Assembly: GCA_963205015.1 (NCBI GenBank)
Contig: CAUJKI010000276.1
Coordinates: 1-46,935, forward strand
Source: Pseudomonadota bacterium
GTDB lineage: Bacteria > Pseudomonadota > Alphaproteobacteria > Rhizobiales > Hyphomicrobiaceae
Direction: 5' to 3'
DNA length: 46,935 nt
Below, piece by piece: positions 13,718-25,793 of the stretch (position 1 is its first letter; each line of letters begins with the position of its first letter). A program made the position numbers and the translations under genes. The notes under the pieces are model-generated. The model was not told where the DNA came from. It saw only the letters and a list, made by a program, of their open reading frames with translations, and searched no databases.

Positions 13718-15242
13718 TGCCGCTCTCCTTGAGAAGCTGTCGCAGGTCCGTCTTGAGAATCTTGCCGTAACTGTTCTTGGGTAGGCTCTCGACGATACGA
13801 TAGTCGCGCGGCCGCTTGTATCGCGCGACGTTCTCGAGGCAGAGAGCGTCAAGCCCCTGAGCGGTGAGCGTCGCATCCGGGCGCGGCACGACGAAGGCCA
13901 CCACCTCCTCGCCCCAATCTGGATGCTCGCGGCCAATGACGGCGCACTCGAGCACCATCGGATGCGTCAGCAGAACCTCCTCGATCTCGCGCGGGTAGAT
14001 GTTGGAGCCGCCGGAGATGATCATGTCCTTGGAGCGGTCCTTGAGCGTCAGGAAGCCTTCCGCGTCTGCGAAGCCCAGATCGCCCGTCCACAGCCAGCCG
14101 TCGCGCAGCGACTTGGCATTGGCCTCCGGGTTGTTCCAATAGCCGCCCATGACGCAGTCCGATCGCGTGATGACTTCGCCGATCTCGCCCGCCGGCAACT
14201 CGCGCCCATCGCCATCGACCACCTTCACGTCCACCCCCGTCCGCGGCACGCCGCAGGACGCGAGAATCTCCTCTCTGCGTGGATGGTCGGTCTGCGCAAG
14301 CACATGCTTGCCGACGAAGCTGATGGTCATGGGCGACTCGCCCTGCCCGTAGATCTGCACAAGCTTCGGCCCGAAGATCTCGAGCGCCTTCTTGAGATCG
14401 CTCACGTACATCGGCGCGCCGCCGAAATAGAGCGTCCGCAGCCCCCGCGTATCGGCTGAGCCGGCGCGCTGGTGATTGATCAGCCGCGAAAGCATGGTCG
14501 GCGCGGCGAACATGGTGACGCTCTGATGATGCGCCAGCACGTCGAAGATGCGATCCGGCTCGAACGACCCCGAGAGCACGATGTTGTGCGCACCCTTGGC
14601 GAGGTGAGGAATGGCGTAGAGGCCCGAGGCGTGCGACAGCGGCGCCGCGTGCAGCTTGACGTCGCGCTCGTCGAGATTGTCGATGTCGGCGTAGTAGCAA
14701 TGGGCCATGAACAGCAGATTGCGAAACGAGAGCACCGCGCCCTTCGGCCGGCCGGTCGTCCCGCTCGTGTAGAACAGCCAGGCCTCATCCTCGGGTCCGC
14801 TTTCGACGTCGTCGATACAGTCGGATGCGAGGAGAGCCGCATAGTCTTTGCTGTCGGTCGACAGGACGCCGGGCATTCCGGGCGCGAAGATCTGCAGCGC
14901 GCCGAGCCGATCGGCCAGCTCGGGCGTGCAGAAGCAGGCCTTGCAGTCTGCATTACCCAGGATGAACGCGATCTCCTTCTCGTGCAGCTTGGCGTTCATC
15001 GGCACGGCCACCAGGCCAGCGCGCCAGATGCCGTAGAGCACCTCGAAGTACTCGGCGCAGTTCTCCATCGCGATCCCGACCCGGGCGCCACGCGCCAGCC
15101 CGAGGCGTCCGCGCAATGCCCCGGCGATGCGGCCGATGTTGGTCTCGAGTTGGCCGTAGCTGATGGTCCCGCGCTCCGACGTGATCGCGGGGTGGTTCGG
15201 CAGGCGCTTGGCGACGCGGCGGACGGTTTGAGAGAGATTCAC
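13710..15242 (-). CDS. Acyl-CoA synthetase (AMP-forming)
   Basis: FYTSGTTGRPKG, YGQGE, TGDLG, DRSKDMIISGG.NIYPREIE, LPKNSYGKILK. Probable GTG start at 15242. Confidence 0.93.
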   Translation of the reverse strand: MNLSQTVRRVAKRLPNHPAITSERGTISYGQLETNIGRIAGALRGRLGLARGARVGIAMENCAEYFEVLYGIWRAGLVAVPMNAKLHEKEIAFILGNADCKACFCTPELADRLGALQIFAPGMPGVLSTDSKDYAALLASDCIDDVESGPEDEAWLFYTSGTTGRPKGAVLSFRNLLFMAHCYYADIDNLDERDVKLHAAPLSHASGLYAIPHLAKGAHNIVLSGSFEPDRIFDVLAHHQSVTMFAAPTMLSRLINHQRAGSADTRGLRTLYFGGAPMYVSDLKKALEIFGPKLVQIYGQGESPMTISFVGKHVLAQTDHPRREEILASCGVPRTGVDVKVVDGDGRELPAGEIGEVITRSDCVMGGYWNNPEANAKSLRDGWLWTGDLGFADAEGFLTLKDRSKDMIISGGSNIYPREIEEVLLTHPMVLECAVIGREHPDWGEEVVAFVVPRPDATLTAQGLDALCLENVARYKRPRDYRIVESLPKNSYGKILKTDLRQLLKESGNA

Positions 15243-15244
15243 GA

Positions 15245-15427
15245 TCAACCCCGGCCCTGTGGCTGCTGCTGACGGCCGGCGATTGGCATCACGCCACGGA
15301 TGCCGGCTGGCTCGCCGTCGATCCCGCTTCCGGGGAGACCCCGGAATTGCCGAGCTGTAGGTTTGGATGCGAGCGCCGGTAGCGGCGCGACGCCAGCAAG
15401 AGACCCGCCGGGCGCATTCTGTCTCAT
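15245..15427 (-). CDS. Candidate 60-aa upstream small ORF
   Basis: GGAGGAG RBS and A-rich tract before ATG 15427; stop ends 2 nt before the ligase GTG. No recognisable family. Confidence 0.3.
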   Translation of the reverse strand: MRQNAPGGSLAGVAPLPALASKPTARQFRGLPGSGIDGEPAGIRGVMPIAGRQQQPQGRG

Positions 15428-15638
15428 CGTCTCCTCCAACTATTCTTTTCTTATTGTATTTTCTTGTTTTTCTTCGGTCCGCACACGTGCCGCCTGCGGC
15501 AGTCCATAGACGCCCCACCGTCGATACTCCGACAAAGATGCCGGGGTTGGTCGGAGCTTTGATAGTTGTTGTAGATCGCTTGAGTGTGCTCAACTATCCC
15601 GCAGTTTGCAGGAGTGGCTGTGCAAAAATCGAGGAGCT

Positions 15639-16619
15639 GTGGCCAGGCCCTTCCATTGGGACCATCTGCGATCGCTGATCGCCATCGCGAGGCAGGGGTC
15701 GATATCTGCTGCCGCGCGCGCGATATCCGTCGAGCATTCGACGCTCAGCCGTCATATCGCCGCCCTTGAGGAGCGGATCGGGTCCAAGCTCTTCGAGAGG
15801 ACACCGAGCGGCACTGTGCTAACCACGGCGGGTGCGCGGCTGCTCGAGGCAGCCGAAGCCATGCAGGCCGTCGTGACGCGCGCCGAGGAGGATATCGGCG
15901 GCCAGGATATGGCCGTGAGCGGCTCGGTGCGGATCGGCGCGCCGGAGGTGGTGGGGGCCTTCCTGCTCGCGCCGCGGCTGGCGAAGCTCTCGAAGGCCCA
16001 TCCCAATCTTTCGGTTCAACTGGCAGCCATGCCGCACAATTTCAGCCTGACGAAGCGCGAGACCGACATGGTCGTCGCACTCTCGCGGCCAGAGCATGGC
16101 CAGCTCGTCAGCAAGAAGCTCTCCGACTACACCCTGTGCGCCTACGCGAGCCGCGACTACATCAAGGCGGCGGCGCCGATCCGAGAGCTGTCCGATCTCA
16201 AATCACATGAGCTCATCAACTATACCGACGACCAGATGTATTCTTCCTATATCGACTACCTGGAACTCGTGCTTCCCGACGTCGAGGCACGGTTTCAGAG
16301 TTCGAGCATGATCGCGCAACTGCATGCGACGATCGAAGGGCTCGGCATTTGCGTCCTGCCGCATTTTCTGACGCGGATGCACGAGTCGCTCGTGCCGGTC
16401 CTGCCGTCGCAAACCTCGCTCGTCCGGTCGTGGTATCTCGTGTATCGAGAGGACTCGCGCAATCTGGCGCGTATAAGAGTGATCAGCGACTACCTCATCG
16501 AGGAGTTTGCAAAGATCCACGGCCTGCTGACGGGGGCCAATCTACACGGTGCCATCGACGGCAAGGTTCTCGCCGTGGACGACGTCGATCAAAGCAAGAA
16601 AAGACGGCAGCCGGCCTAA
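15639..16619 (+). CDS. LysR family regulator
   Basis: WDHLRSLIAIARQGSISAAAR..V.HSTLSRHIAALEE.IG.KLFER; divergent from the ligase operon; start approximate. Confidence 0.93.
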   Translation: MARPFHWDHLRSLIAIARQGSISAAARAISVEHSTLSRHIAALEERIGSKLFERTPSGTVLTTAGARLLEAAEAMQAVVTRAEEDIGGQDMAVSGSVRIGAPEVVGAFLLAPRLAKLSKAHPNLSVQLAAMPHNFSLTKRETDMVVALSRPEHGQLVSKKLSDYTLCAYASRDYIKAAAPIRELSDLKSHELINYTDDQMYSSYIDYLELVLPDVEARFQSSSMIAQLHATIEGLGICVLPHFLTRMHESLVPVLPSQTSLVRSWYLVYREDSRNLARIRVISDYLIEEFAKIHGLLTGANLHGAIDGKVLAVDDVDQSKKRRQPA

Positions 16620-16645
16620 AGACCTTCGATCGCCTTACATGCGTC

Positions 16646-17911
16646 TCACATGAAGCGCCGCGGTGAGAACGGCTTGAGGTCGAGAGCTGGCGTTTCTCCG
16701 GAAACCAGCTCGGCCAGCACTCTTGCCGTCATAGGCGCGCCCGTCATACCGACATGGCCATGACCGAAACCGTAGAGCACGTCCGGCGTCGCAGCCGATC
16801 GGCCGATGACGGGCAATGAATCAGGCAGGCTCGGCCGGAAACCCATCCACTGACTGAGGCGCTTTTCATCGTAGGAGCTGGAGAGAGCCGGCAGGAGCTG
16901 CCGCGCATGGTCAAGCAGGACGCGTGCGCGTCGCCAATCCGGGGGAAGGTCGAGGCCGCCGAGCTCGACGGTACCGGCGAGCCGCAAGCCGCCTTCCATC
17001 ATGGTGACGACAAACTTGCCTTCCGCCTCAGTGGTTGGAAGCTTAGGTCGCACCTCAGGGTCCGCGATCATCAGATGATAGCCACGCTCGGTGTCGAGCA
17101 GAACGCGATCCCCCAGCCGATCGGCGAAGGGCTTGGAGTGTGCGCCCGCGGCGATCACCACACTCTCCGCCGGAACATCACCACGGTCCGTTTGAACGGC
17201 ACGGACAGTTGCGCCGTCAAGGGCGACGCCGGTTGCGGAGGCGGCAATCAGGGTGGCACCATTCCTGAGAGCGTGCTCGACGAGACTCTTGACGAGCTTC
17301 GAGGGGTTCGTCGTATGCCCATTCTCCGGGATGAGAACGCCTCGTACGAAGCGCGGCGACAGCACAGGATCAAAGTCGCGGAGCTCATCGCGGTCGAGAT
17401 ACTCGAGCCGGACGCCATTCTCACGACGCAGAGACCAGCCCGCCTGGTCCTTCTGAAAGCCCTCTTCAGAACGATAGACGTAGATGTGCCCGTCATGGCG
17501 CACGAGATCGCCAGCACCGGCCTCACGCGCAAGATCCGTCATCGTCGCGACGGTCGGCCCGAGGAGCGCTCGCAAGGCCTGCGCCTGCGCCGTCACCTTC
17601 GCTGGCGTCCCCGATTGCACGAAGCGCACGAGCCACGGCGCAATCTTGGGCAGATAGCTCCATCGGACCGACAAAGGCCCCATCGGATCGAACATCCAGC
17701 CAGGCACGTTCTTCAGCATGCCCGGCATCGACATCGGCACGATCGAGGAGCCATTCAAGCAGCCGGCATTGCCGAACGAGGCCCCTTCACCCGGCGGCTT
17801 CGGGTCGATAATCGTCACCGCATGGCCTCGTCGCTGAAGCATCAGAGCCGTGCACGCGCCGACGATGCCAGCCCCGATGATCGCAACTTTCCTGGACGTC
17901 ATGACCTGCAT
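16646..17911 (-). CDS. FAD-dependent oxidoreductase, glyphosate oxidoreductase (GOX)/D-amino acid dehydrogenase-like
   Basis: GAGIVG, GASFGNAGCLNGSS.VPMSMPG, DPMGPLS, ENGHT.NP, LDTERGYH, WMGFRPS.PDSLPVIG, FGHGH.GMTGAPMTA. Confidence 0.9.
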   Translation of the reverse strand: MQVMTSRKVAIIGAGIVGACTALMLQRRGHAVTIIDPKPPGEGASFGNAGCLNGSSIVPMSMPGMLKNVPGWMFDPMGPLSVRWSYLPKIAPWLVRFVQSGTPAKVTAQAQALRALLGPTVATMTDLAREAGAGDLVRHDGHIYVYRSEEGFQKDQAGWSLRRENGVRLEYLDRDELRDFDPVLSPRFVRGVLIPENGHTTNPSKLVKSLVEHALRNGATLIAASATGVALDGATVRAVQTDRGDVPAESVVIAAGAHSKPFADRLGDRVLLDTERGYHLMIADPEVRPKLPTTEAEGKFVVTMMEGGLRLAGTVELGGLDLPPDWRRARVLLDHARQLLPALSSSYDEKRLSQWMGFRPSLPDSLPVIGRSAATPDVLYGFGHGHVGMTGAPMTARVLAELVSGETPALDLKPFSPRRFM

Positions 17912-17978
17912 TGCCTGCTGATGTGCCGCACTGCACCGCGGCGCCGATTACATCCAGACGTTGTCAACGCGGCTGCCA

Positions 17979-18024
17979 CGCGTCAAATATCGAAGCGAGG
18001 GGTGTTCATTCGTTGAGGCTATGA
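17979..18024 (-). promoter_or_regulatory. LysR box (TCAT-N11-ATGA) plus TTGAC -35 for the GOX-like gene
   Basis: Palindromic T-N11-A site at 18006-18024; 34/46 identical to 18978-19023. Confidence 0.75.
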
Positions 18025-18983
18025 TCAGACAATCGATGTCCCGAGCCCGGATCCGGCAGTTGGAGGCGTTCCATGCGGTTCTGCAGACCGGGTCGGCGAC
18101 CCGTGCCGCGGAACTGCTTCGCATTTCGCAGCCATCCGTCAGCAAGCTTCTCCAGGAGCTCGAGGCGGAGACCGGTGTCCGCCTCTTCGAGCGTGTGCGC
18201 AAGCGCCTCTTTCCGACGCCCGAAGCTCGCCGGCTCGCCCAGGAAGTGGACGATCTCTTCCGGAAGCTCAGCCGCATCGAGCACGTCGCAAACGAAATGC
18301 GCGCCAAGGGCGTCGGCCAGCTCAGGATCGCGTCGCTGCCCGCGCTCGGCTTTGGGCTCATCCCGCGCGTTCTCGCGCGCTTCCGACACGATCAGCCGGA
18401 GCTCCGCGCGGTGCTGTCGCTCGCCCCCTCCCAGCGCGTGGTCGAGATGGTGGCGTCGGGCGAGGTGGATATCGGCTTTGCCTATCCCGTACCGGGGAAG
18501 CCGACCACGCTCGAACGCCATACCCTTGCGGTATTGCCTGCAGTCGTCGTCCTGCCCCCGGGACACCGACTTGCGCGGCAAAAGGAACTGCGGCCCGAAG
18601 ATCTCGAAGACGAAACCCTCGTTTCGCTCGGCCGCGAGGACCGATCGCGCGACAACATGGATATGCTTTTCGACAAGACGCGCCTCGACGCCGCCGTGGC
18701 GGTCGAAACTCCCTTTGCCGCCGTAGCATGCGAGCTGGTGGCCGCCGGCGTGGGCGTGGCGCTCGTCGATCCGGTCACGGCATACTTCTACGGCGATCGC
18801 CTCGAGGTCCGCCCGATCGAGCCGAGCTTCAGCTTCGACTTCGGCGCGCTCACGCTCGCTGGAAGCCCCCCATCGTCCGCAGCACATCGCCTTTTGGATA
18901 TGGTGGCGGACGCAATCCCGATGGCGACATCGACGTTGCGTGGATCCCGGTCTCATCGCCCAAAAAAGCATCAGCGTTCATAG
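18021..18983 (+). CDS. LysR family regulator
   Basis: IRQLEAFHAVLQTGSATRAAELLRISQPSVSKLLQELE...G.RLFER; start at 18021 or 18036. Confidence 0.93.
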   Translation: MIRQSMSRARIRQLEAFHAVLQTGSATRAAELLRISQPSVSKLLQELEAETGVRLFERVRKRLFPTPEARRLAQEVDDLFRKLSRIEHVANEMRAKGVGQLRIASLPALGFGLIPRVLARFRHDQPELRAVLSLAPSQRVVEMVASGEVDIGFAYPVPGKPTTLERHTLAVLPAVVVLPPGHRLARQKELRPEDLEDETLVSLGREDRSRDNMDMLFDKTRLDAAVAVETPFAAVACELVAAGVGVALVDPVTAYFYGDRLEVRPIEPSFSFDFGALTLAGSPPSSAAHRLLDMVADAIPMATSTLRGSRSHRPKKHQRS

Positions 18984-19023
18984 CTGCAAGGAATGAACTG
19001 GTCGCGCTTTCGTATTTGACCCG
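18978..19023 (+). promoter_or_regulatory. LysR box (TTCAT-N11-ATGAA) plus TTGAC -35 for the deacetylase-tct operon
   Basis: Inverted repeat at 18977-18997 followed by TATTTGAC at the same spacing as in the copy at 17979-18024. Confidence 0.75.
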
Positions 19024-19127
19024 ATATCGGGAAGATGGGCACCTTTGATCCATATCCCGTGCGGCGCGGCGCCCTTTCCCGGACGCTGATGTCGAAGGCA
19101 AACTGCGATCCACTCGCTGGAGCCACG

Positions 19128-20126
19128 ATGAAAGAGATCAAGGTCGTCTTGACGATGGACTGCGAGCCGACGACGGCCACCAGTCATCCGGCCGCAACCG
19201 GGCCGGCCGACTGGCGGGCTGGCGAGGACGCCGTCCGCGGCTACGTCGAGATTGCGACCCACTACGGCCTGCCGGTCACGCTTTTCGTTCATCCCGAGGC
19301 GGCAGTTGCCCAGGCTGCGATGTTTCGTGAGCTCGAGAGCAAGGGGGCCTGCATCGGCCTCCACATGCACCCGTGGAAGTACGCGCTGTGGCGCCATGAC
19401 GGCAAAAAGTACCTCGCCCACTATGGCGGCCTTTCTGCAACCGAGCAGAAGGACCTGTTGGCCGAGTCGTCAGCGATCTGGGCGGAGGCGATCGGTCATA
19501 GGCCGGAATACTTCCGCCCCGGCACATTCTCGGCCAACGATGCGATCTTCAATGTGCTGCGGGAACAGGGCTTCCGTGGGGGCTCGTGCACGGCGCCCGG
19601 CCGCTTCATTCCCGAAATGCAGGCGATCTGGGTCGGTGGCCAGCCGGATCCGCATCGCGCCAATCCGAACTTCCGCCAGGCGCTCGGTGCACTCGATTTC
19701 GCCAACATGCCGCTGTCGGCCGACTTCTCGAAATCATTGAGCGGCCCGGCTGGGCGCAGCATGTACGCAGACTTCCGGCCGGACGTGGACTGGCCCGGCC
19801 AGTATGATGTGAGCTATCGTACCATCGCGACCAACATCGTCGCACAGGTGCGCGAGCGAGCGCCCGCGGTGCCGGTCCTCAACGCGATCACACACAATCA
19901 CTACGCCTACCGCGACACCTCGGATCCCGTGTATCGCCGCCTGCGCGTCATGCTCGACGAGATGATGTCGGCCTGTGCTGCCGCGGGCGTCAAGCCCGTC
20001 GGCTCGACGCTGAAGAACGTCGCAGATGCGGTTCTCGCCCTGCCGCCCGTGCAGGAGCCGTTCGTGTGCGAGGGCGCCATATTCGATCTCGAGGCCGACC
20101 GGGCCGAGATCGGGACATCCGCCTGA
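19128..20126 (+). CDS. Polysaccharide deacetylase (NodB/CE4-like) family hydrolase
   Basis: LTMDCE, PVTLFV, IGLHMHP (metal-binding His pair), FRPG motifs; no signal peptide; GGAG before ATG 19128. Confidence 0.7.
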   Translation: MKEIKVVLTMDCEPTTATSHPAATGPADWRAGEDAVRGYVEIATHYGLPVTLFVHPEAAVAQAAMFRELESKGACIGLHMHPWKYALWRHDGKKYLAHYGGLSATEQKDLLAESSAIWAEAIGHRPEYFRPGTFSANDAIFNVLREQGFRGGSCTAPGRFIPEMQAIWVGGQPDPHRANPNFRQALGALDFANMPLSADFSKSLSGPAGRSMYADFRPDVDWPGQYDVSYRTIATNIVAQVRERAPAVPVLNAITHNHYAYRDTSDPVYRRLRVMLDEMMSACAAAGVKPVGSTLKNVADAVLALPPVQEPFVCEGAIFDLEADRAEIGTSA

Positions 20127-20141
20127 AAGGGGAGACTTGCC

Positions 20142-21101
20142 ATGGTTGTGAGATGGACACGCAGAGCAGTCATCGCGGCGGGCCTCGGCTCCCTTCTGCT
20201 CAGCCAGGGCGCGCTGGCGCAGGCAACCTATCCGCGTCGCCCGATCTCACTGGTGGTGACGTTTGCAGCGGGCGGCGGCACGGACGTGCTGGCGCGCATC
20301 GCCGCAAAATACCTCTCGGAGGAGCTCGGCCAACCGGTCAACGTCGTCAACAAGCCCGGCGGCAACTCCATTCCCGGTGCCATGTCGGTCATGAGCGCTG
20401 CGCCGGATGGCTACAATCTTCTCTTTGATTCACCGGCGACCAGCTCACTCCACGCGCTCGTCTCGGACCTGCCGTATAAGGTCGACCAGCGCACGTGGGG
20501 GCCGCTGCTCACAACCGGACCGTACATCTACGCCGTCAACGCGAAGTCGCCGTGGAAGTCCCTCAAGGACATGGCCGAAGCCTCCCGCGGCAATCCGGAA
20601 TCGCTGCGCATCGGCTGGATGGGCGGAACGAGCTTCACGGATACGACGATGCTCAAGCTTTTGAGTGTTGCCGGGGTCGACGCTTCGAAGGTCAAGAAAG
20701 TACCCTTCGCCGGCTCGGGGCCGGGCATGGTGGCGCTTGCGGGCGGACACATCGACCTCTCAGGCGGCAACATCGGCGCTGCGACGTCGCTCATGGCATC
20801 CGGTGATCTTCGCGCGCTTGCGGTCACGGGCGACGAACGCGTGCCGGCGCTGCCGGACGTGCCCTCTTCCAAGGAAGCGGGCGTCTATGTGCCTCTGACG
20901 AGCTGGAATGCGCTTTCCGGCCCCGCCGGCATGTCGCCGGACATCGTCAAGCGTCTGGACGATGCCGTGCAGAAGATGGTGAAGCGACCGGAGTACATCA
21001 AGGATCTCGCTGCCGTCGGTAATCTGCCGTCTTACAAGGCCCCATCCGTTATGCCGGCCTTCATCAAGGAAGAGGTGAAGACCCTGAGCGACCTCCGCTG
21101 A
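20142..21101 (+). CDS. tctC: Tripartite tricarboxylate transporter substrate-binding protein (Bug/TctC)
   Basis: YP.RPI.LVV.FAAGGGTD..AR, VVNKPGG, APDGY, VPF.GSG, RALAVT...R...LPDVP. Confidence 0.93.
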   Translation: MVVRWTRRAVIAAGLGSLLLSQGALAQATYPRRPISLVVTFAAGGGTDVLARIAAKYLSEELGQPVNVVNKPGGNSIPGAMSVMSAAPDGYNLLFDSPATSSLHALVSDLPYKVDQRTWGPLLTTGPYIYAVNAKSPWKSLKDMAEASRGNPESLRIGWMGGTSFTDTTMLKLLSVAGVDASKVKKVPFAGSGPGMVALAGGHIDLSGGNIGAATSLMASGDLRALAVTGDERVPALPDVPSSKEAGVYVPLTSWNALSGPAGMSPDIVKRLDDAVQKMVKRPEYIKDLAAVGNLPSYKAPSVMPAFIKEEVKTLSDLR

Positions 21102-21117: not shown

Positions 21118-21627
21118 GTGAACGCGCCCTCGCCGCAAGAGAGAGAGGCCTCGGGGAGAGAGGCTGCTTCTCTCACCCGCTTTCTCGAGCCCGTTCTTCT
21201 TATCGTTCTAGGCGGCGCGGGCGTCGTCGACGGCTGGCGGATCATCACGACAAAGGCGGAGACACCCGGCGGTGTCGAGGCCGGCGGCTGGATCGCGGCA
21301 CTCGGGGGAATGCTCGTCGCCGGAGCCTGCGTCCAAATCGCACGCGATATCCTTCGCGGGCCGGAGGCCGCATCCGCGACAGAGCCCGACGTACTCTTCA
21401 AGCCGCCGGCGATCGCACTCGTGCTGTTGCTGCTCTACGTCGCCCTGATCACCCCGCTTGGCTATGTGCTGGCCACTGCGCTCTTCATGGCGGCTTATCT
21501 CCGGATCTTCGGCCGCTATGGCCCTCTCACCGTCGCGGCAATTGCGATACCATTCGCCGCCGGGTCCGGCTGGCTTTGGTCGGCGTTGAACATGACGCTG
21601 CCGCAGGGCGTTCTCCCGTGGCCTTGA
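21118..21627 (+). CDS. tctB: TTT small membrane subunit
   Basis: About four TM helices, LGYVLAT..F, LPQG near the C-terminus; lies between tctC and tctA. Confidence 0.85.
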   Translation: MNAPSPQEREASGREAASLTRFLEPVLLIVLGGAGVVDGWRIITTKAETPGGVEAGGWIAALGGMLVAGACVQIARDILRGPEAASATEPDVLFKPPAIALVLLLLYVALITPLGYVLATALFMAAYLRIFGRYGPLTVAAIAIPFAAGSGWLWSALNMTLPQGVLPWP

Positions 21628-21695: not shown

Positions 21696-23159
21696 ATGGA
21701 TCTCCTGAACGGCCTCCTGTCGGTGCTGACGCTGGAGTATCTCGCCTATTCCTTTGTGGGATGCCTGCTCGGCACGCTGGTCGGCGTTCTACCCGGCGTC
21801 GGTGCCGCTTCCGCCGTCGCGATCCTCTTTCCATTCACGACGTTCCTGCCGCCCACCGGCATGATCATTACCATGGCGGCGATCTACTACGGCGCCCAGT
21901 ACGGCGGCTCCACGACGGCCATCCTCGTCAACGTGCCGGGCGAGGTCTCGTCGATGGTGACGGCGGTCGATGGTTACGAGATGACCAAGCGCGGCAAGGC
22001 GGGTCCGGCGCTCGCGATGGCGGCCATTGCATCATTTCTGGCCGGCATCGTCGGTGCCGTCGTCGTCGCGCTGGTCGGCCCATCGGTCGCACGTCTGGCG
22101 CTGCTCTTCGGTCCGGCGGAGTATTTTGGCCTCGGGCTGTTCAGCCTTACGGCAATCGCCGCCCTCGCTGGCTCGTCGCTCTTTCGCGCCGTTCTCGTGA
22201 CCCTGTTCGGTATGCTGCTCGCATCCGTGGGCTTTGATGATTCCTCCGGACTGCCACGTCTCACATTCGGGCAAGCACCGCTGCTGCAGGGCTTCGACCT
22301 CGTACCGGTCATGATCGGCCTGTTCGGTGTCGGCGAGGTACTCTCCTCCCTGCAGGAGAAGGCCGGCCCGGCAATCACGAGCCGCATCGGCAAGCTGATG
22401 CCGGAACCGGCGGAGCTGAAAGCGGGACTGGCCGCAGCTTCCCGAGCGACAGGTATCTCGCTCATTCTCGGCCTGCTCCCGGGCATGATGCCGTCGATAG
22501 GGTCGTTTTTATCGTACTCGATCGAGCGTTATCGATCGTCCGAGCCGCAGCGGTTCGGCAAAGGAGCGATCGAGGGCGTCGCCTCCGCGGAAGCCGCCAA
22601 CAACGCGACGGCAATGTCCAACCTGATCCCGCTGCTGGGGCTCGGCATCCCGACCGGACCGACCATGGCGCTCATGCTCGCAGCCTTCACCTTGTACGGC
22701 ATCGTGCCTGGCCCGCTCCTCTTCACGCAGCAGGCGGATCTGGTATGGACGCTGATCGGCAGCTTCTTCGTCGGCAACGTCATCCTGCTGATCCTGAATC
22801 TGCCGCTCGTCGGCCTCTGGGTCCGACTTTCCACGATCCCCTATCCCATCCTTGCGCCGATCATCCTCGTCGTCTGCATGGTCGGTGCCTACAGCACCCG
22901 CAACAGCATGTTCGACGTGTGGGTCTGTGCATTGTTCGGACTGCTCGGCTGGATCATGCGCGCGCGAGGTTGGCCGCTCGCGCCCCTCGTGCTCGCCTTC
23001 GTCCTTGGCCCGATGATCGAGCGTGCCGGGCGCCAGGTCTTCGCCATATCGCCCGAGCTTCTGCTGCATCGCCCTGCGTTCTGGGCCTTCATCGTCCTCG
23101 GGTTTGTCGTGATCTGGGCTTCCAGCCGGCTCGCGGTGCGAGGCGAACTCAGCGACTGA
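21696..23159 (+). CDS. tctA: TTT large membrane subunit
   Basis: GTLVGVLPG.G, YYGAQYGGS..AILVNVPG, DGYEM...G, EAANNA, LGLGIP. Confidence 0.95.
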   Translation: MDLLNGLLSVLTLEYLAYSFVGCLLGTLVGVLPGVGAASAVAILFPFTTFLPPTGMIITMAAIYYGAQYGGSTTAILVNVPGEVSSMVTAVDGYEMTKRGKAGPALAMAAIASFLAGIVGAVVVALVGPSVARLALLFGPAEYFGLGLFSLTAIAALAGSSLFRAVLVTLFGMLLASVGFDDSSGLPRLTFGQAPLLQGFDLVPVMIGLFGVGEVLSSLQEKAGPAITSRIGKLMPEPAELKAGLAAASRATGISLILGLLPGMMPSIGSFLSYSIERYRSSEPQRFGKGAIEGVASAEAANNATAMSNLIPLLGLGIPTGPTMALMLAAFTLYGIVPGPLLFTQQADLVWTLIGSFFVGNVILLILNLPLVGLWVRLSTIPYPILAPIILVVCMVGAYSTRNSMFDVWVCALFGLLGWIMRARGWPLAPLVLAFVLGPMIERAGRQVFAISPELLLHRPAFWAFIVLGFVVIWASSRLAVRGELSD

Positions 23160-24797: not shown

Positions 24798-24896
24798 CCG
24801 AACTAGAAATGGACCGCAGGGACAGTTGCCTCGCGCGAGAGCCGCCGAGCACCTGCCAGTTTGCCGGAACTCCAGGATGTTGTACGGATTGACGGC

Positions 24897-25793
24897 ATGA
24901 ACGTCGCTACCCCGGTCCGCCCCCGCCATTCGCCTTGCATCGGCGTCTGCAAGCTCGACGAGCAGAGCGGTTTCTGCCTCGGTTGCGCGCGCACGGGCGA
25001 CGAGATCGCCGCCTGGGCGTCGCTCGATGAATCCGGGCGGAATGCCATCTGGCAGAAGTTGCCCGACCGGCTGACAGCACTGGCGGTGCGCATTCGCCTG
25101 ATGCCCTGGACCGGCGACGAGATCCTCGACTGGGTCGCGGGAACCATCATGGAGCGTAGAGGCACATGGGTAACCGGGATGCCGGGCGCGATTGCCGAGT
25201 TTCCCTGCCAGCCGGCTCGCAGTGTCTCTGTCTCAACCGGACCGGACTTCATAGTCGGCCGCGCTGACGATGCTCTATTCCGTCTGCGCGCGACGGACAG
25301 GTTGCGCGCCTTCGCGTTCGACGGCGATGGCCCCATCGTTCTCGGCCAATCGCGCGCACGGCTCGACGAGAGCAAACCCGAGCATTTTACCGCACTCGGC
25401 ACCGATCAGAATGCCATCGATGCCGATCACCGTGGTCAAGCGCTGTTCGATTTCGGGCTCGGCCGCCGCTTCAGCCGTTTCTGCATCCGGACCGGCAATG
25501 CGGAATTCGCGGACCGGCTGAATGCGCTCGCGGGCCTGTCCTGGCGCGAGGTTTTTGCCAAGGCCGGCGCACAGATCCTTGCCGAGAGCCCGACGCGGGT
25601 CGTCGCATCGAACCTCGCCCGCATCGAAGTGTTCTCGGCGATACCGCCGCCCGGCGGGCGGTCGCCTGAGGGCGCGCATACGCACTTTCTGCCGCAGTTC
25701 TTCGCTTCGGGCGAGGAAATCCCAGCCGCACTGGCGCTGCCCGACTATGCCGCACCAGTGGCGGTCTTCTATCCGGGCAACCCTCCCGAGTGA
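24897..25793 (+). CDS. DUF1289 domain fused to an uncharacterised C-terminal domain
   Basis: SPCIGVCKLD...FCLGCART.DEI..W at the N-terminus; about 230 aa C-terminal region with GAIAEF, LFDFGLG, FCIRT, EGAHTHFLP. Confidence 0.75.
   Translation: MNVATPVRPRHSPCIGVCKLDEQSGFCLGCARTGDEIAAWASLDESGRNAIWQKLPDRLTALAVRIRLMPWTGDEILDWVAGTIMERRGTWVTGMPGAIAEFPCQPARSVSVSTGPDFIVGRADDALFRLRATDRLRAFAFDGDGPIVLGQSRARLDESKPEHFTALGTDQNAIDADHRGQALFDFGLGRRFSRFCIRTGNAEFADRLNALAGLSWREVFAKAGAQILAESPTRVVASNLARIEVFSAIPPPGGRSPEGAHTHFLPQFFASGEEIPAALALPDYAAPVAVFYPGNPPE

Follow-up and report, generated by a model that had tools for sequence, protein, structure and literature searches.

The window, the whole stretch of 46,935 nucleotides analysed here, carries an intact, conserved and likely co-regulated cassette of five genes and a regulator, built around the sister enzyme of glyphosate oxidoreductase (GOX). 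Its oxidase gene diverges from a lysR gene, on whose far side lie a gene for a CE4-fold hydrolase and tctCBA, which encode a tripartite tricarboxylate transporter (TTT). We put it at slightly better than even (a probability of roughly 0.55) that this cassette serves the uptake of an amide-blocked or cyclic N-carboxymethyl amine, which is opened by the hydrolase and from which the oxidase releases glyoxylate, likely together with glycine. If this is true, GOX's sister clade gains a native substrate and an uncharacterised CE4 hydrolase family gains a function. The regulon is compact and self-contained and has a definable operator, so that its inducer could be found by a reporter screen and its two enzymes assayed in sequence. 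The cassette is a testable lead on the normal role of GOX-type enzymes, and the oxidase is a candidate for the breakdown of glyphosate or chelators by wastewater bacteria; the surprise is limited in that the enzyme family is already known and large.

The oxidase and its relationship to GOX

The oxidase gene (16646-17911, minus strand) is intact, with 0 internal stops, and encodes a GOX-family FAD-dependent amine oxidoreductase of 421 residues; the database version (P0002) has 418 residues and begins at the second in-frame ATG, at 17902. The locus has also been assembled independently, in a separate study (run X6), from which a 4874-bp contig covers window positions 15072-19945 with 117 differences and takes in the oxidase, the lysR gene and most of the hydrolase gene. 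Since a single contig from another study spans it, the locus is no assembly artefact.

In profile searches the protein is a DAO-family flavoenzyme (PF01266, 226.9 bits against a cut-off of 27.9). Its predicted model (pLDDT 92) has the glycine-oxidase fold (TM 0.69-0.75 to glycine oxidases), and its identity to the structures matched, those of glycine oxidases, IdaA and sarcosine oxidases, is 17-24%. IdaA of Chelativorans BNC1 (PDB 6PXS; TM 0.70) converts iminodiacetate (IDA) into glycine and glyoxylate, the reaction that is proposed here, but is shorter, belongs to a separate lineage and is only 21% identical. Two narrower assignments were rejected. The best NCBIfam match is the D-amino acid dehydrogenase PRK00711, but the score is 210 bits against a cut-off of 383, identity to E. 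coli DadA is 24%, and the two stand apart in the tree; the profile of the glycine oxidase ThiO (TIGR02352) scores 124 against a cut-off of 250.8 bits.

For comparison with GOX, named references were taken from cluster listings (ADD71136.1, ADD71135.1 and the synthetic ADV58259.1). The oxidase is identical to ADD71136.1 at 254 of 414 positions (61%), with no gaps over these 414 residues, and to ADV58259.1 at 243 of 414 (58.7%); the latter value exceeds the 35% similarity to GOX that serves as a threshold in the covered sections of a 2025 survey (PMC12452685). According to those sections, GOX oxidises glyphosate to AMPA and glyoxylate, and also IDA, without net H2O2, and its natural role in bacteria is called unresolved; they make no use of gene neighbourhoods (PMC12452685).

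The sequence-only reading had quoted seven short motifs as GOX-like rather than DadA-like, and this description holds. The window oxidase has all seven (residues 20, 39, 75, 196, 254, 272 and 388), as does ADD71135.1; ADV58259.1 has six and E. coli DadA none. Of 32 sequences in the next more distant clade (clade C, below), 0, 0, 3, 25, 0, 0 and 0 carry them, respectively, and this scarcity makes most of them diagnostic of the window clade and the GOX clade together.

Trees were built with FastTree on 99 sequences and with IQ-TREE on 49 of those, after removal of two long-branch outgroups (L183 and a second Aminobacter gene). Three groups, some 60% apart, can be distinguished: clade A with the window oxidase (64-91%), clade B or GOX proper, and clade C from soil Alphaproteobacteria, many of them Stellaceae, whose members are 57-62% identical to the oxidase. 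Clade A is sister to clade B (support 99.8/99 in IQ-TREE, with the same placement in FastTree); its monophyly is weak when P0029 is included (51/80) and good when it is not (94/98). The GOX clade (100/100), ten members of which are 70-99% identical to ADV58259.1, excludes the window oxidase, and 15 alignment columns are diagnostic between the two clades. Together with Aminobacter and Ancylobacter/A. vitis proteins, clades A, B and C form a wider GOX-like clade of 42 sequences (99.8/100). Outside it fall E. coli DadA and the dehydrogenase encoded beside a hydroxyproline epimerase on S. meliloti pSymB, which we take to be HypO-like. Both resemble the window oxidase in family and length, but at 24% and 39% identity, respectively, they differ in part at the positions of N53, S56 and K299. 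The oxidase thus belongs on the GOX side of the tree, well away from the ordinary DadA clades, and the earlier label of a close GOX-like enzyme is right in that the two are sister clades at 59-61% identity: the window oxidase is GOX's sister, not GOX proper.

Five residues of the putative active site (N53, S56, H279, K299 and R359) are invariant or nearly so across clades A and B in the alignment. F358 is likewise common to both, whereas clade C has a histidine there. H335 aligns with H334 of GOX, a position reportedly linked to an improved GOX variant. These putative active-site residues do not fix the substrate, since clade C keeps most of them and yet has no recurring catabolic context in the loci surveyed.

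The regulator and its predicted operator

The regulator gene (18021-18983, plus strand, with a start at 18021 or 18036) encodes a LysR-type protein whose nearest solved relative is OccR (E 4e-25). A sigma-70 consensus scan returned 0 promoters, after which a motif was obtained by comparing loci. Cross-locus alignment shows TCAT-N11-ATGAA-N16-ATTTGAC in both intergenic regions, facing the oxidase in one and the hydrolase in the other, so that at each predicted promoter the dyad stands at a fixed 18-bp spacing from TTGAC, the likely -35 element. Motif 1 (17982-18024, minus strand) lies 71 bp upstream of the oxidase and overlaps the lysR start region, an overlap that suggests autorepression of lysR; motif 2 (18978-19020, plus strand) has the same architecture and lies upstream of hydrolase-tctCBA. 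Canonical LysR recognition sites lie upstream of the -35 element, and the geometry of the motif fits a predicted site of this kind. LysR regulons are recognised by a T-N11-A dyad some 65 bp ahead of each start site, and both promoters appear to have one.

Two matches to the motif are found in the window and none in 100 shuffles. Genome-wide, a weight matrix gives two sites at 53.8 and 40.8 bits, the next scoring 17.5. The strict motif occurs at 30 sites in 15 related cassette loci, a count that is circular in that the motif was derived from these loci; outside them, the only strict site in 1.9 Mb of loci is the window's own, and none was found at GOX-clade, Aminobacter or hydrolase-only loci. 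Because the motif precedes both transcription units and has only two copies in the genome, co-regulation of the oxidase with hydrolase-tctCBA is well supported in silico, in agreement with the sequence-only reading, which had described a visible regulator and a co-regulated transporter. In the window genome the regulon likely consists of oxidase, hydrolase and transporter only, and a regulon of so few genes would imply that its products can be used without further enzymes of their own.

The layout recalls the OccR-regulated opine operons, where a LysR protein of the same subgroup is likewise encoded divergently and combined with a transporter and a flavin-dependent C-N oxidoreductase. By contrast, the opine operons have a multi-subunit opine oxidase and an ABC transporter, and the window cassette a single-subunit GOX-like oxidase and a TTT system.

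The hydrolase and the transporter

The sequence-only reading had named a divergent LysR gene and a TTT transporter, both of which are present, and had passed over the gene that lies between them (19128-20126, plus strand). It encodes a CE4/polysaccharide-deacetylase-fold hydrolase of 332 residues, whose predicted model (pLDDT 96.5) has 3LM3, 3RXZ, HP0310, the PuuE-like 1Z7A and ArnD as its nearest structures (Z 22.6-17.9). D11, E13, H81 and H256 are present in 112 of 112 aligned sequences and H79 in 111 of them; the residues were mapped onto HP0310 by motif, not from coordinates. As modelled, the protein has the CE4 barrel together with the conserved acid/His catalytic set. It shares this barrel with HP0310, the PuuE allantoinase, the HxnM cyclic imidase and the ArnD deformylase (Z 17.9-21.3), and also the Asp-x-acid motif, two metal-type histidines and a distal histidine, but differs from them in its low identity (12-18%), in HxH rather than HxxxH spacing and in a Glu at the second acid position. 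The structural description of HP0310 reports no groove for a polysaccharide and a small molecule as the likely ligand (PMC3084791), while the structurally similar HxnM opens a cyclic imide (PMC9304392). The structural group nearest to the hydrolase is described as small-molecule or cyclic-imide hydrolases (PMC3084791; PMC9304392).

No characterised close relative of the hydrolase was found. A PDB sequence search gave nothing below E 0.1, a plasmid search gave no match, and Atlas matches were to unnamed or polysaccharide-deacetylase clusters only. Hydrolase sequences more than 74% identical fall into roughly 60 clusters. Homologues are present in three genomes whose best oxidase matches are 44%, 32% and 28%, one of these genomes being 93% complete with a hydrolase 78% identical, so the pairing of hydrolase and oxidase is not obligatory. 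Homologues in G187 (78%), G359 and G398 lie near NtaA/DmoA-family, UbiD, MmgE/PrpD, TRAP or TauD genes, and the fusion partners of distant relatives (histidine phosphatase, SDR and TauD) give no consistent clue. In G359 a tandem hydrolase pair stands beside MmgE/PrpD (L177:9696-11652), and the match in G398 (C1:186085-187053) contains one TGA.

The hydrolase gene is followed on the same strand by the genes for the periplasmic binding protein TctC (20142-21101, identified by profile search), the small membrane subunit TctB (21118-21627) and the large membrane subunit TctA (21696-23159).

Conservation of the cassette

A survey covered 160 fetched loci, 15 with an oxidase at least 66% identical (the cassette loci) and 145 below 66%. 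Where the flank was long enough, LysR is present in 14/14 cassette loci against 0/118 of those below 66%, the hydrolase in 11/12 against 0/90, and TctA in 7/8 against 0/66. The 15 loci are partly redundant, three oxidases being 99-100% and three 95-96% identical. L103 retains hydrolase fragments only, L106 has a piece of tctC and no TctA, and in L110 an MFS gene follows the hydrolase. Degenerate or duplicated copies of the cassette, with a truncated second lysR and IS66 nearby, occur in L102, L103 and L106, and L102 has a broken hydrolase gene with an intact copy further along.

The GC content of the cassette (0.645) is close to that of the genome (0.641). Its distribution is patchy: genome sampling gave a hydrolase match in 1/300 genomes of the family and 2/400 of the class, and none in 13 genomes of the same genus or 400 of the phylum. 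In 60 relatives the cassette DNA matched tctA paralogues and one short oxidase stretch, among the matches listed. Two sets of neighbouring genes were considered as members and rejected. A second LysR gene to the left (15606-16619) has no orthologue beside the oxidase in related loci, where matches reach only 23-30%. The flanking genes for acyl-CoA ligase, thiolase and enoyl-CoA hydratase are likewise not a recurring part of the cassette loci. No paper describing the cassette was found in the literature searched, which left most subscription journals and patents outside.

Substrate clues from relatives

The neighbourhood of GOX itself is different. A GOX-clade gene 92% identical to ADD71136.1 is carried by three roseobacter plasmids, in two of which the order is LysR, TRAP, RidA, oxidase, RidA, bhcB and bhcC (L081:5064-13925 and L192:3073-11934). 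These two modules stand beside mer genes on conjugative plasmids. The sequence-only reading had taken the window locus for a native genomic context of GOX; the cassette is real, but it surrounds the sister enzyme and is not GOX's own native context, and on the three plasmids GOX-clade genes have LysR, TRAP, RidA and bhcBC in place of hydrolase and TTT. The GOX sequences compared (ADV58259.1, ADD71135.1, ADD71136.1 and Chelativorans Q11MN5) share 59-61% identity and putative active-site residues, including His334/335 and Phe358, with the window oxidase.

No match to bhcA or bhcD was found in the Roseovarius stretch around the GOX-clade gene. As described in the covered part of a preprint, BhcC and BhcB convert glyoxylate and glycine into iminosuccinate (bioRxiv 10.1101/2022.08.08.503134), and oxidation of IDA yields glycine and glyoxylate, according to the portion covered of another report (PMC7312458). 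The presence of bhcBC without the aminotransferase would make sense if the oxidase supplies both compounds, as IDA cleavage does; RidA would then hydrolyse the imine. The roseobacter module reads as a minimal route from IDA to oxaloacetate and offers what is probably the strongest hint at the role of GOX itself.

A second context is provided by Aminobacter aminovorans KCTC 2477, which degrades nitrilotriacetate (NTA) and IDA (PMC5146447). Its plasmid pAA02 encodes AA2016_RS30050, a protein 55% identical to the window oxidase and of the same wider GOX-like clade, adjacent to bhcABCD; the gene for an NtaA/DmoA-family monooxygenase is some 11 kb away. Its setting of RidA, ABC transporter, bhcABCD and ntaA-like monooxygenase differs from the window cassette, and the protein is a candidate for the IDA-oxidising enzyme of this strain. 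The gene, RidA and the ABC transporter stand together, flanked by bhcABCD on one side and an ntaR/A/B-like cluster on the other (L184:32553-50000; L185:1048-4526). A further GOX, Q11MN5, is 98.8% identical to the reference and comes from Chelativorans, presumably strain BNC1, to judge from its mnemonic CHESB. Near-identical copies carry the labels Agrobacterium, Brucella/Ochrobactrum group, Pseudotabrizicola and Accumulibacter (P0544), a distribution that suggests recent spread. By analogy, the contexts of the relatives point to iminodiacetate, but they belong to the GOX clade and to Aminobacter, not to the window clade.

Within the cassette loci, a serine dehydratase gene follows the oxidase in three of 15 (L106, L107 and L109). 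These dehydratases are 50-65% identical to one another, their oxidases 88-94%, and one of the loci also has an SHMT gene and another a piece of one, neighbours that are consistent with glycine as a product. The window genome has a malate synthase; no clear bhc cluster, no gcl and no close NtaA (best 47%) were found in it.

Proposed pathway and alternatives

In the reading that we favour, TctCBA would take up a carboxylate, an amide-blocked or cyclic N-carboxymethyl amine, which LysR would sense, binding the motif and activating both promoters. The CE4 hydrolase would act first and open the amide or the ring, and the freed secondary amine, for which iminodiacetate is the best guess, would become the substrate of the oxidase. 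By GOX chemistry, FAD-dependent oxidation to an imine and its hydrolysis would then give glyoxylate and, probably, glycine. These products would enter central metabolism via malate synthase and glycine catabolism, so that the regulon would need just two enzymes. We know of no natural N-acyl or cyclic IDA. Any glyphosate activity of the window oxidase would be incidental.

A wider proposal, which we regard as tentative and would not wager on, is that the cassette represents a route not yet described for some natural compound of the iminodiacetate type, cyclic or N-acylated, which would run through transport, optional oxidation by a P450, opening of the ring or amide by the CE4 enzyme and cleavage of the GOX type, and that, taken with the bhcBC-RidA and nta contexts, it reflects a GOX family that evolved as iminodiacetate or N-carboxymethyl-amine dehydrogenases. 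Were this so, GOX's natural role would be settled and a new hydrolase activity named.

The alternative that survives best, although we think it unlikely, is the degradation of a saturated N-heterocycle or opine lactam, the ring-opened product being an N-substituted glycine other than IDA, such as aminoethyl-glycine or a strombine-type opine; the chemistry would be GOX-like and the amine product something other than glycine. The likeness of LysR to the opine sensor OccR would suit an opine, but the match is modest at E 4e-25, and the serine dehydratase and SHMT neighbours suit glycine better. In a larger version, a P450 would first oxidise the carbon adjacent to nitrogen; in seven of the 15 cassette loci a P450 gene immediately follows the oxidase or a third motif copy, with ferredoxin and reductase genes behind it in L097. 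However, the oxidases of the P450 loci are 87-100% identical and make up a single subclade, and the P450 is missing from the window genome (best match 28%). Enzymes like HP0310 include cyclic imidases (PMC9304392), which also agrees with ring opening. The P450 of L097 (L097:7797-11057), with its ferredoxin and reductase attached to the cassette, is a divergent one with a polar I-helix region and a best PDB match at E 5e-22.

An N-acyl-D-amino-acid or imino-acid pathway, in which a deacylase would feed a DadA/HypO-like dehydrogenase with no release of glyoxylate, is improbable. CE4 enzymes are typically de-N-acylases, PRK00711 is the best NCBIfam match and identity to the S. meliloti hydroxyproline-cluster enzyme reaches 39%, but PRK00711 falls short of its cut-off with the window oxidase and scores similarly, at 220, with ADD71136.1; moreover, DadA and the hydroxyproline-cluster enzyme lie outside the 99.8/100 clade, and cassette loci have no recurrent racemase or epimerase. 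Recent selection for glyphosate or N-acetylglyphosate use, by deacetylation, GOX cleavage to AMPA and then C-P lyase, is very hard to credit even with a sister of GOX, a PhnJ gene elsewhere in the window genome and four sequencing runs with the locus from sludge or wastewater, since the whole cassette and its operators are kept across oxidases 66-91% identical, a divergence that would be far older than decades of herbicide use, and since the cassette loci showed no phosphonate genes and the genome no strong motif copy outside the cassette.

Other loci

Other members of the family stand in settings of their own. On an IncP plasmid of Acidovorax sp. T1 (L191:4039-11901), a GOX-like gene (45%) is combined with aroA, a member of the isocitrate-lyase/PEP-mutase family and the gene for a TTT binding protein, and IS91 and IS1071 adjoin the group; this is possibly a glyphosate-related module. 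A further GOX-like clade (50-55%; L083, L084 and L186-L190) is accompanied in all seven loci by a flavin reductase, an LLM monooxygenase and a sugar-lactone-oxidase-like gene, and in most by an aldehyde dehydrogenase and an ABC binding protein. Speculatively, these genes could convert N-hydroxyethyl into N-carboxymethyl amines.

Between 33959 and 41420 the window itself encodes a second DAO-family paralogue (43% identical to the oxidase), which lies outside the GOX-like clade, together with an ABC transporter and RidA-like and MmgE/PrpD genes. Between 24273 and 31842, translations indicate cobalamin salvage-like genes, presumably cobU/cobS/cobC/cobT-like, and a TonB receptor. The same stretch encodes a DUF1289-DUF6925 fusion at 24861-25793.
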